From: Pseudomonas faucium
GTDB taxonomy: Bacteria > Pseudomonadota > Gammaproteobacteria > Pseudomonadales > Pseudomonadaceae
NCBI RefSeq assembly: GCF_021602585.1
Contig: NZ_BQIP01000011.1
Location: forward strand, 100,413 to 130,412
Reading direction: 5' to 3'
DNA length: 30,000 nt
Positions within the stretch are counted from its first letter, which is position 1, and every line of letters begins with the position of its first letter. The notes beneath the pieces were generated by a model. It searched no databases. It saw only the letters and a list, made by a program, of their open reading frames with translations, and had not been told where the DNA came from. Shown here in pieces: positions 634 to 2,441 of the stretch. The position numbers were made by a program, and so were the translations under genes.

Positions 634-1224
634 ATGTATCGCAAAAGTATCTACGACCGGATTTTCGAAAGGCGTGAGGAACAGGAACGCATCGAAAACG
701 AACGCGTCGCACAAGAGGAGATGAAACCACCAGCGCCGCAGCGTTTCTTGGCGAATGAATTCAGTTTTGTACGGGCCTCGGATTTGAAAGATAAAACTTT
801 TCATGTCTTTACACTGACAGACATAGGGCCGAGCCCTTTTTCATTAGTGGTCGGGCGCTCACCTGTGCATTCAGAAGATGATCTGGAAACCCTCGCCCAG
901 CAGTTACTGGGTGAATTGAAAAAATCGCTTTCGCATGTGCAGTGGATACAGCCTATTTCACCGACGCAGGTGGCAGGAGTTGATGCGCGTTGCGTCGAGT
1001 TTCGGTGGCGGCAACAAGGCCAGCTAGTTCATCAGGTGCAGGTCATGTTTATGCACCACGATGAGCACAATCGCCCTTTACTCGTTCAGTTGACGGGAAC
1101 CAGTAACCATCCGAAGGGTATGACGCCCGAAGAGCGGGGTGCGTTCGATGCTGTGGTTCAGAGCTTGGAGCTTCGCTCGCTCCCGGTTCAAGACGAGGCA
1201 CCACAAAAGCCTAATGAGGCATGA
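634..1224 (+). CDS. DUF1795/DcrB-like T6SS effector chaperone (Eag family), copy A
   Basis: ATG at 634 lies 8 nt after GGGAG (621-625). The 196-aa product shows the DUF1795-like pattern (FSFVRASDLKDKTFHVFTL..SLVVGRSP..VAGVDARCVEFRWRQQGQLVHQVQV..LVQLTGT). It sits directly between vgrG and a prePAAR effector, and its stop overlaps the effector start (ATGA at 1221-1224). Confidence 0.75.
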   Translation: MYRKSIYDRIFERREEQERIENERVAQEEMKPPAPQRFLANEFSFVRASDLKDKTFHVFTLTDIGPSPFSLVVGRSPVHSEDDLETLAQQLLGELKKSLSHVQWIQPISPTQVAGVDARCVEFRWRQQGQLVHQVQVMFMHHDEHNRPLLVQLTGTSNHPKGMTPEERGAFDAVVQSLELRSLPVQDEAPQKPNEA

Positions 1225-2441
1225 GTGCCGCAGCGAGGCAGGGGGATGCGATTGAGCACTCTAGTGCGTTTGGTGGCCTGCTCTCGGGGCTGGCGGTCGG
1301 AGCGGGGGCAGCCCTTATCGGTATCGCTATCGTCGGAACCGGCGGCATAGGTGCGGCGGCGCTGGCAGCTATGGTAGGTGCGGGGGCTACGACAGGTGCC
1401 GGCATTGGCCAGCTCATAGGCAGACTGTCATTTGCATGCAGGGAGACCGGGCAGATTGTTTCGGGATCGGACAACGTCCATATAAACGGCCGTCCTGCGG
1501 CCAGGGCGCATTTGGACACTGTTCAATGTGATGATCATCCCGGCGCTATGGGGAGAGTGGCTCAAGGAAGTACTTCGGTTTACATCAACGGTCAGTCTGC
1601 TGCACGCGTGGGGGACCGAAGCGTATGCGACGCGAAGATCTGCGTGGGTTCCGCAAACGTATGCATCGGCGGCGGAACTGCGACCACGGATGAGATAGAA
1701 CCTGAAGTGCCTGTTGTGCTAGAGCGCGCCTTGATGGCAACCGGCCTTGCCAGTGCCTTAGTGCTGGCAAGTCCAATACTGGTAGTCGCAGGTATGGCCG
1801 GCGGCATTGTAGGAGGGATGGCGGGGCATTGGGCGGGTGGAGAACTTTATGGTGAAGGATCTGATGGCCAGAAGTTGATGGCCCTCGGAGGCACCTTACT
1901 TGGAGGGGGGATTGGGGCAAAGGGAGGGAAAGCCTTCGAAGCTCGCTATGAATTTAAGGTTCAAGGGCTGGGTTCTAATCTCAGTAACGTAAAGGTCTTG
2001 TCAAAGGCGGATGCTGGGCAAGGGCGAAGCTATCAGCGCAAACTGAAGTATTTTAGTAATCAGGCAGTTGAATGGAGAGCGACACGCTCGGCAGGTACGG
2101 ATTATACTTATAAAGTTTATCAGCGGAGAGATATAGATTGGCAGCAGGTGCGATCGGGAGGGGATAAGCGGTTCGTTGGAAAGACCAACAGGGAAGCTGC
2201 TGAAAGAGGGTTGTCTCCACAGCTTTCCGATGGAAGCTTCGTAACCCTTCACCACTTAGGGCAGAAAGCACCTGGGCCGCTGGTAGAGGCCAGTACTCGT
2301 TATCACGGTGTAGGGCGTTATGGGCAGAACGTTTTGCACAGTCAGTATGGAAGGAGTAAACCTCATCCTGACCTTAAGATCGACAGGAAAAAATTTGACG
2401 TCGATTGCCGCGAGTACTGGCAGTGGCGGTTGAATAATTGA
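1221..2441 (+). CDS. Class II prePAAR / PAAR-domain T6SS effector with C-terminal LHH-type HNH/EndoVII-like toxin, copy A
   Basis: - prePAAR motif AARxxDxxxH: residues 4-13, AARQGDAIEH.
- First TM region: Gly/Ala-rich hydrophobic stretch at about aa 15-68.
- PAAR-like core: about aa 75-160 (VSGSDNVHINGRPAARAHLD..VYINGQSAARVGDRSVCD..ANVCIGG).
- Second TM region: hydrophobic stretch at about aa 170-245.
- C-terminal toxin: about 145 aa containing VTLHHLGQKAPGPLVEASTRYHG.

The toxin family call is pattern recognition only. Confidence 0.85.
   Translation: MSAAARQGDAIEHSSAFGGLLSGLAVGAGAALIGIAIVGTGGIGAAALAAMVGAGATTGAGIGQLIGRLSFACRETGQIVSGSDNVHINGRPAARAHLDTVQCDDHPGAMGRVAQGSTSVYINGQSAARVGDRSVCDAKICVGSANVCIGGGTATTDEIEPEVPVVLERALMATGLASALVLASPILVVAGMAGGIVGGMAGHWAGGELYGEGSDGQKLMALGGTLLGGGIGAKGGKAFEARYEFKVQGLGSNLSNVKVLSKADAGQGRSYQRKLKYFSNQAVEWRATRSAGTDYTYKVYQRRDIDWQQVRSGGDKRFVGKTNREAAERGLSPQLSDGSFVTLHHLGQKAPGPLVEASTRYHGVGRYGQNVLHSQYGRSKPHPDLKIDRKKFDVDCREYWQWRLNN

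Follow-up and report, generated by a model that had tools for sequence, protein, structure and literature searches.

A predicted class II prePAAR effector with an LHH-type toxin module and a SUKH immunity gene in an auxiliary vgrG island of Pseudomonas faucium

Introduction

Class II prePAAR effectors of type VI secretion systems (T6SS) have been defined by an AARxxDxxxH motif placed before the first transmembrane domain (TMD), by TMDs on both sides of the PAAR domain, by a length of about 450 aa free of Rhs repeats, by the motif GxxxxGxxLxGxxxD (r4) and by a chaperone of the Eag (DUF1795) family (Ahmad et al. 2020, PMC7773334). Here we describe a locus of Pseudomonas faucium lying in a stretch of 30,000 nt (assembly GCF_021602585.1, contig NZ_BQIP01000011.1, positions 100,413 to 130,412 of the forward strand), which we call the window and in whose coordinates all positions below are given. 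An intact plus-strand open reading frame (ORF) at 1221-2441 encodes a protein of 406 aa which is, with a probability that we put at about 80%, a specialised ("evolved PAAR") class II prePAAR T6SS effector bearing a Tox-LHH His-Me finger nuclease toxin and accompanied by SUKH immunity in an auxiliary vgrG-eag-effector-immunity island. Like the effectors of the Tse6, Tas1 and Tne2 type (PMC7773334), it combines prePAAR and the TMD-PAAR-TMD order with a length in the range of about 400-450 aa and no Rhs cage, and its gene has an eag gene and vgrG upstream and a gene for a cytoplasmic immunity protein downstream. It differs from them in that the toxin is of the LHH nuclease type and not an NAD(P)+ glycohydrolase or a (p)ppApp synthetase, that its version of r4 is shorter by one residue, that the vgrG gene is frameshifted and that the cassette is present in duplicate.

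Toxins of the LHH family (PF14411) have been described on other carriers. YobL-CT of Bacillus subtilis, the partner of YobK, belongs to the same Pfam family by literature assignment, is likewise found at the C-terminus of a polymorphic carrier and has SUKH-type immunity encoded next to it, whereas the YobL carrier is of the LXG type and is delivered by the type VII secretion system of a Gram-positive host. Nte3 of Neisseria cinerea, the partner of Nti3 (PMC8263058), is a T6SS effector with a C-terminal Tox-LHH domain (pfam14411) that has been tested together with its immunity partner in E. coli; unlike the protein of the window, it is an Rhs-type effector without an integral PAAR domain, predicted to travel as cargo, and not a compact TMD-PAAR-TMD protein. 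The original prediction for our locus, made from the DNA letters alone, had called its toxin domain probably uncharacterised. This is true of the present protein and its subfamily but not of the LHH family, which is already defined and in which YobL-CT and Nte3 are both toxic and neutralised by their cognate immunity proteins. The family is listed as group 11 of the His-Me finger classification, with no structure or mapped active site (Jablonska et al. 2017, PMC5714182). Its signature residues have been given as N, LHH, E, H, H and W, and Imm-SUKH is the only immunity type listed for it (Zhang et al. 2012, PMC3482391).

Results

The carrier part of the effector has the elements of the class II plan apart from the exact r4 pattern. 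The prePAAR motif AARQGDAIEH lies at aa 4-13 (1230-1259), an exact match of AARxxDxxxH, with the search pattern AAR..D...H matching once, at aa 4; residues A3, A4, A5, R6, D9 and H13 are invariant across the homologous carriers of our alignment A2, which comprises ten sequences. The hydrophobic stretch begins directly after the motif: TMD region 1 extends over aa 14-66 (1260-1418), with 19-residue Kyte-Doolittle windows at or above 1.2 (maximum 2.3), a glycine plus alanine content of 56% and a single charged residue. It is followed by the PAAR core at aa 76-140 (1446-1640), recognised by the Pfam PAAR_motif model (E 3.2e-23) and by matches to PDB entries 4jiw and 4jiv, with conservation continuing to about aa 157. 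A second hydrophobic block, at aa 163-205 in the Kyte-Doolittle windows, passes into a glycine-rich stretch that ends at about aa 237, and together these form TMD region 2 (aa 163-237, 1707-1931). This region contains GHWAGGELYGEGSD at aa 202-215, which fits GxxxGxxLxGxxxD, with one residue fewer between the first two glycines than in r4; its residues G202, G206, L209, G211 and D215 are invariant in the ten carrier homologues.

The N-terminus aligns with two prePAAR effectors of solved structure, Tre23 (7pq5, E 1e-18) and the class II effector Tas1 (6ox6, E 1.4e-12), and the protein gave no Pfam match to RHS/YD repeats. Membership in class I was considered and rejected, the Pfam prePAAR_I model scoring 21.4 bits, below its threshold of 25, in a protein with two TMD regions and no Rhs repeats. 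The original prediction had placed the exact prePAAR motif at nt 1230-1259, a Gly/Ala-rich membrane region at about aa 15-68, the PAAR core at about aa 75-160 and a second membrane region at about aa 170-245, and our boundaries agree with it closely. Its two-TMD, class II interpretation is likewise borne out by the motif, the order of the domains, the length of some 400 aa without Rhs repeats and the DUF1795/DcrB gene upstream.

That gene, a putative eag chaperone gene at 634-1224 (plus strand, 196 aa), matches Pfam DcrB (PF08786, E 1.3e-17), the DcrB/DUF1795 family being that of the Eag chaperones (PMC7773334). Its stop codon overlaps the start of the effector gene (ATGA), and the same eag start was called in three other contigs (L001-L003). 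A gene of the Eag chaperone family thus lies next to the effector gene. The original prediction had noted that effectors of this class need Eag chaperones, and by analogy the effector would need its product. Sequence and profile searches of the Eag protein against the PDB gave nothing useful.

Three Pfam families are matched above their curated thresholds and the identical protein is present in other public assemblies, so that the features of the effector can hardly be due to chance. When the genome contigs of species representatives were scanned with the full effector, no relative came up. The public record of the protein, WP_236193675.1, is named "HNH/ENDO VII family nuclease" and has 235 aa beginning at M172 (1734-2441 of the window); prePAAR, the first TMD region and PAAR are therefore left out of it, and the T6SS effector nature of the protein is hidden.

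The C-terminal toxin is a member of the LHH family. Between carrier and toxin lies a polymorphic junction and linker (aa ~258-282, 1992-2066), seen in alignment A2 and modelled as disordered, with a predicted local distance difference test score (pLDDT) below 50. The toxin module occupies aa 283-406 (2067-2438) and consists of a beta extension (aa 283-322) and the core (aa 322-405), which matches Pfam LHH (PF14411) over profile positions 1-75 of 76 with E 5e-12 and 46.2 bits against a cut-off of 23.3. The sequence VTLHHLGQ...GPLVE...STRYHG is found at aa 341-363, and its L343-H344-H345 are encoded by nt 2247-2255. With aa 239-406 as query, a word-indexed search gave 43 homologues, 53-76% identical where most of the query was covered and nearly all carrying PF14411, from Pseudomonas, Photobacterium, Aliivibrio, Lysinibacillus and other Firmicutes. 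In the family alignment of the module (A1; 36 sequences, 35 of them with a PF14411 match) residues D304, E356, S358, H362, G363, H373 and G377 are invariant, and N323, L343, H344 and H345 are conserved in at least 90%; a C-terminal tryptophan (W400/W402) is kept in most sequences, outside the columns of at least 90%. All the Tox-LHH signature residues are thus present in the domain and are invariant or nearly so in A1, in agreement with the LHH-type assignment of the original prediction.

Conservation in A1 begins at about W285, from which we take the module to be about 124 aa long; some 40 conserved residues, those of the beta extension, precede the Pfam LHH model. Searched with the family profile, 1.84 billion representatives yielded 525 members at E <=1e-3, of which 101 reached E <=1e-30. 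Among the 150 matches listed, the proteins range from 51 to 6113 aa, the shortest probably being fragments, and the LHH domain always stands at the extreme C-terminus, behind carriers that include TPS/Fil_haemagg (type V secretion, CdiA-like), RHS, PT-HINT, PT-TG and PAAR.

An AlphaFold2 model of the module built on A1 has a mean pLDDT of 78.6 and exceeds 90 across most of aa 279-358 and 379-406. Two N-terminal strands and a short helix come first; strands at aa 340-345 and 354-358, a helix at aa 369-376 and a long C-terminal helix follow. H344 and H345 end the first of the central strands, E356 lies in the second and H373 in the helix that follows, so that in the model strand (LHH), strand (E) and helix (H) appear in the order expected of a beta-beta-alpha-metal finger.

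The effector gene is followed after 14 nt by a gene of the SUKH superfamily (2456-2920, plus strand, 154 aa), which matches SMI1_KNR4 with 37.2 bits (threshold 25.4) and SUKH_5 with 30.5 bits (threshold 27); its ATG has an AGGAGG ribosome-binding site 5 nt upstream. The N-terminus of the protein, MMVENSILKEKY..., is hydrophilic, which fits the absence of a signal peptide, and sequence and profile searches of the PDB with the protein gave nothing useful. In all three contexts that we examined, a Pseudomonas-type Rhs array (L004), Photobacterium (L005) and a T6SS cluster of P. alliivorans (L006), the LHH homologue is directly followed by a SUKH_5/SMI1_KNR4 gene encoding 147-149 aa. The toxins of these pairs are 63-74% identical to one another and the SUKH proteins, which are full-length homologues, 46-56%, with 46-54% between the SUKH protein of the window and the other three; at the sequence level, a co-inherited immunity protein that diverges faster is the pattern expected of a cognate pair. 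The SUKH immunity gene singled out by the original prediction was therefore recovered together with a conserved partnership, and this conserved gene pairing suggests that the product of 2456-2920 is the cognate immunity protein.

In the Rhs array of L004, positions 6001-6708 are an orphan remnant in which the TMD2 tail of a class II carrier is fused to the same LHH subfamily. It sits among Rhs toxin cassettes, and its frameshifted C-terminus overlaps its own SUKH gene.

The carrier itself is polymorphic. Its N-terminal 259 aa have 219 homologues at E <=1e-10; of the 120 listed, nearly all belong to Pseudomonas, and those of full length mostly have 365-420 aa. The C-terminal domains found on the same carrier are LHH, HNH (PF01844), Tox-GHH (PF15636), GH-E (PF14410), PF24120 or unannotated. 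In A2 conservation extends to ...GSNLxNVKV (GSNLSNVKV in the window), at about aa 258, and is followed by complete divergence; one of the aligned carriers, P0119, bears the same LHH subfamily. In vgrG and the carrier the GC content is about 0.60-0.65; over the toxin domain and the three genes of immunity type it drops to 0.45-0.49 (1750-4250), which is consistent with horizontally exchanged toxin-immunity modules. A CRISPR or phage origin was rejected, nothing having been found in support of either.

The sister species P. plecoglossicida has a syntenic locus (L008) with an intact vgrG (611 aa), eag (63% identical), a class II effector with an HNH domain, a gene for a 155-aa protein that is weakly SUKH-like (a sub-threshold match), a homologue of the 139-aa ORF described below (70%), a 167-aa gene, a YrhA-like gene (57%) and EamA (93%). 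This is probably the published vgrG-eagR-txe3-txi3 cluster of that species (PMC9020831). The two loci share the chromosomal site and the gene order, the carrier parts are about 56% identical and the orphan genes are conserved. The toxin-immunity pair, in contrast, is different: L008 has an HNH toxin (PF01844) with another immunity protein, and there vgrG is intact and the cassette is present in a single copy.

Two further genes on the plus strand downstream of the SUKH gene are most readily interpreted as orphan immunity genes, which would make this a heterogeneous polyimmunity locus. The first, ORF139 (2964-3383, 139 aa), has no Pfam match for the member in the window and belongs to a widespread proteobacterial family (182 homologues of about 140 aa, all named "hypothetical"). 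An assignment to Imm11 (PF07791) was tried and dropped, the member in the window having no match and only 5 of 38 relatives matching, at E 0.0015 or weaker. Its AlphaFold2 model (pLDDT 95.5) has one meaningful match in the PDB by Foldseek, 6a4c (probability 1.0, TM-score 0.51); this entry is MXAN_0049, which confers immunity to the T6SS nuclease toxin MXAN_0050 (PMC6627406). In P. syringae (L010) a homologue lies 12 nt downstream of a gene for a class II prePAAR effector of 377 aa (4856-5989 of L010), that is, in the position of a cognate immunity gene. From the modelled MXAN_0049-like fold and this position, ORF139 is best read as an immunity-type protein. The toxin domain of the 377-aa effector of L010 is also unannotated.

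The second gene (3528-4007, 159 aa) belongs to the SUKH-related YrhA family (NCBIfam NF038335, 99.5 bits against 55), with a weak SMI1_KNR4 match and no adjacent toxin. With its counterpart at the corresponding position of the P. plecoglossicida locus it shares 57% identity, and it is probably an orphan immunity gene. Both orphan genes may protect against nuclease toxins carried by sister effectors of other strains.

The cassette occurs twice in the window, which the original prediction had not mentioned. Base-by-base comparison at an offset of 6058 shows 100% identity along 4180 nt, followed by a random level, so that 1-4180 (copy 1, with the vgrG 3' end, eag, effector, SUKH gene, ORF139 and YrhA-like gene) and 6059-10238 (copy 2) form a direct repeat in the same orientation. 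Copy 2 includes eag at 6692-7282, a second identical effector gene at 7279-8499, the SUKH gene at 8514-8978, ORF139 at 9022-9441 and the YrhA-like gene at 9586-10065, all on the plus strand. The 1878-bp segment between the copies contains the arms of a 97-nt inverted repeat (4214-4310 and 4373-4469), which are 92% complementary, are separated by a 62-nt spacer and have a core GCGGAT..ATCCGC like that of repetitive extragenic palindromic (REP) elements. A dispersed REP element was not established, only its own two arms occurring in the window. About 30 nt of its outer end recur directly after copy 2 (10227-10285), which places the breakpoints of the duplication in related sequence. The 6058-bp spacing fits a tandem duplication in which the unit is 4181-10238; its first copy would then start some 1.9 kb upstream of position 1 of the window.

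The vgrG gene belonging to copy 1 is cut by the start of the window, and only its 3' end (1-614, plus strand) is seen, with matches to Gp5_trimer_C, Phage_base_V and positions 402-513 of TIGR03361. The vgrG gene of copy 2 (4836-6672, plus strand) is disrupted by a 2-bp deletion at about 5460 (5459-5461), in codon 209. It is represented by two overlapping ORFs, 4815-5480 and 5137-6672, that split the Phage_GPD domain, and tblastn with the intact 611-aa orthologues of P. plecoglossicida and P. syringae shows a switch of frame between aa 208 and 210. Codon 209 encodes the Tyr/Phe of a conserved IR[YF]H, where intact orthologues read ...EQPQIRYHGNSVTE..., and the gene of the window reads ...EQPHIR|HRNSVTE... 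up to a stop at 5478-5480; the context of the deletion is not a homopolymer. Contigs L001 and L002 carry this lesion too.

The remainder of the window (10283-30000), judged by its ORF translations, is ordinary high-GC chromosome with an EamA-type transporter, a LysR-type regulator, a LamB/YcsF-like gene with allophanate-hydrolase-like neighbours, acyl-CoA, short-chain and aldehyde dehydrogenases, a GMC oxidoreductase and a sugar ABC transporter. No T6SS core genes were seen among these translations, and the cassette therefore has the character of an auxiliary vgrG island.

Discussion

We infer the secretion, chaperone dependence, translocation, enzymatic activity, substrate and neutralisation of the effector by comparison with better-studied proteins. 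By analogy with Tse6-type effectors (PMC7773334), the Eag (DUF1795) chaperone encoded upstream would shield both TMD regions in the cytoplasm of the producer, and prePAAR and PAAR would together cap a VgrG spike; after T6SS firing the TMDs may insert into the inner membrane of the recipient and help the C-terminal domain to reach the cytoplasm. Judging from its family, the module of aa 283-406 would then kill by metal-dependent cleavage of nucleic acid, with H344/H345, E356, H362 and H373 as the likely catalytic or metal-binding residues, and the cytoplasmic SUKH protein would bind the toxin and so protect the producer and its kin. The expected logic of the active site resembles that of the colicin E7 and E9 DNases, in which the HH pair at the end of a strand is combined with a second strand and a helix bearing a metal-binding histidine, whereas the immunity proteins (Im and SUKH, respectively), the route of delivery and the N-terminal subdomain differ.

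Several observations weigh against this reading. The exact r4 pattern GxxxxGxxLxGxxxD is absent from the effector by motif search. The segment that holds H362 and H373 was modelled at a pLDDT of only 54-59. Foldseek found no PDB match to the toxin model below E 1 (the top one, DNA polymerase beta at E 1.5, is noise), and the profile of the toxin family matched no PDB chain. By hhalign the similarity of the LHH profile to colicin E9 DNase (query identical to 1bxi_B) was not detectable, with a probability of 0.09, and the comparisons with the Tox-GHH and HNH domains of the sister carriers gave at most 0.15; all these values come from alignments of low diversity (Neff, the effective number of sequences, 1.5-2.2) and are uninformative rather than negative. 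Of the HNH/EndoVII fold proposed in the original prediction, the beta-beta-alpha order is thus seen in the model, but no HNH-fold match accompanies it and the histidine segment is of low confidence. As neither Foldseek nor the profile comparisons gave an independent match, the His-Me finger assignment rests on family membership and the published classifications (PMC3482391, PMC5714182). Txe3 of P. plecoglossicida XSDHY-P, a class II effector with an HNHc domain, showed no toxicity in E. coli (Li et al. 2022, PMC9020831), and an intact architecture is consequently no guarantee of activity. The report of RNase activity of YobL-CT in E. coli (PMC6562991) and the state of vgrG, which makes delivery by the island's own spike doubtful, belong to the same side and bear directly on the alternatives considered below.

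The ability of the island to fire depends on a functional VgrG, and the visible copy is not one. The truncation of VgrG by the deletion in codon 209, shared by the short-read contigs L001 and L002, would be expected if the cassette were a decaying or silent relic whose effector is no longer loaded or fired and whose genes are kept mainly for immunity; the public annotation, which calls only a 235-aa C-terminal fragment of the effector, and the truncated, C-terminally frameshifted LHH remnant in another Pseudomonas (L004) point the same way. Nevertheless, the ORFs of eag, the effector and the three immunity genes are unbroken, do not differ between the copies and have coupled translation signals, the vgrG gene preceding copy 1 is largely outside the window and could be intact, and other VgrG paralogues could load the effector, so we regard decay of the cassette as rather unlikely. 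The doubling of the cassette might in turn be suspected of being an assembly artefact in a genome that holds it once, given that the copies are 100% identical over 4180 bp and that in draft assemblies the cassette stands alone on contigs of 4.3-5.9 kb ending in the inverted repeat. Such lone contigs are, however, near the length of the repeat unit and are the product expected of a collapsed tandem repeat; the junction of the cassette with EamA is the ancestral adjacency, seen in P. plecoglossicida; and three short-read contigs (L001-L003), which end in the 97-nt inverted repeat, run across the novel junction 4180|4181. An artefact therefore appears improbable to us, and the duplication is probably real.

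The nature of the target is a separate matter. The original prediction assumed a DNase; its nuclease part agrees with the family of the toxin, and the precedents set by YobL-CT point to both RNA and DNA as the substrate. YobL-CT, the only biochemically examined PF14411 toxin listed in a recent review, is tabulated there as an rRNase (PMC9990079), which together with its RNase activity in E. coli, the label "LHH RNase" given to the group in a 2026 preprint and the additional N-terminal beta element, about 40 aa long and conserved in the subfamily of the window, would favour a toxin of the same fold and delivery that acts as an RNase, for example on rRNA or tRNA. Full-length YobL induced in B. 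subtilis, on the other hand, led to loss of chromosomal DNA and to anucleate cells, from which its authors concluded that it is a DNase (PMC8321402), and most His-Me finger toxins are DNases. The closeness of our domain to YobL-CT could not be shown either: no YobL-named protein was found among ten LHH representatives of 560-650 aa, so that the link to YobL rests on the Pfam assignment made in the review. We consider DNA the more likely substrate and an RNase a doubtful alternative, and the more specific proposal that the LHH subfamily with the beta extension is an RNA-targeting His-Me finger toxin cleaving rRNA or tRNA is unlikely. A non-nuclease with some other cytoplasmic target, sharing with LHH proteins only the scaffold, seems to us very improbable. 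It would accord with the lack of any structural or profile-profile match to a solved His-Me finger and with the fact that neither a solved structure nor a mapped active site is available for any LHH protein (PMC5714182). The Pfam LHH match is nevertheless significant and the invariant residues include the histidines and the glutamate expected for metal-dependent catalysis; moreover, SUKH immunity is tied to toxins that degrade nucleic acids (PMC3482391, PMC5714182), and YobL and Nte3 behave as toxins that target them.

Conclusions

The architecture, the delivery logic, the immunity type and the polymorphism of the locus all follow published rules, and the concept of class II prePAAR effectors is unchanged by it. 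What the effector adds is LHH among the toxin types known on the class II prePAAR carriers of Pseudomonas. The public 235-aa record could gain from this analysis the prePAAR, TMD1 and PAAR regions that it omits. The locus is also a worked example of turnover, in which sister species carry different toxin-immunity pairs at one chromosomal site, orphan immunity was kept, a cassette was probably duplicated in tandem and a vgrG gene was broken.

With about 124 aa of toxin and 154 aa of immunity protein, the pair is compact and its toxin is modelled with confidence over most of its length, in a family that has no solved structure and for which RNase and DNase activity have both been reported. The interest that remains in the locus lies in the lack of any LHH structure, in the question of DNA or RNA as substrate, in the unannotated immunity family of ORF139 and in the duplicated cassette with its broken vgrG. 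If the RNA-targeting reading were true, the module would be a compact His-Me finger RNase delivered by the T6SS, and the contradiction between RNase and DNase reports on LHH toxins of the YobL type would be resolved.

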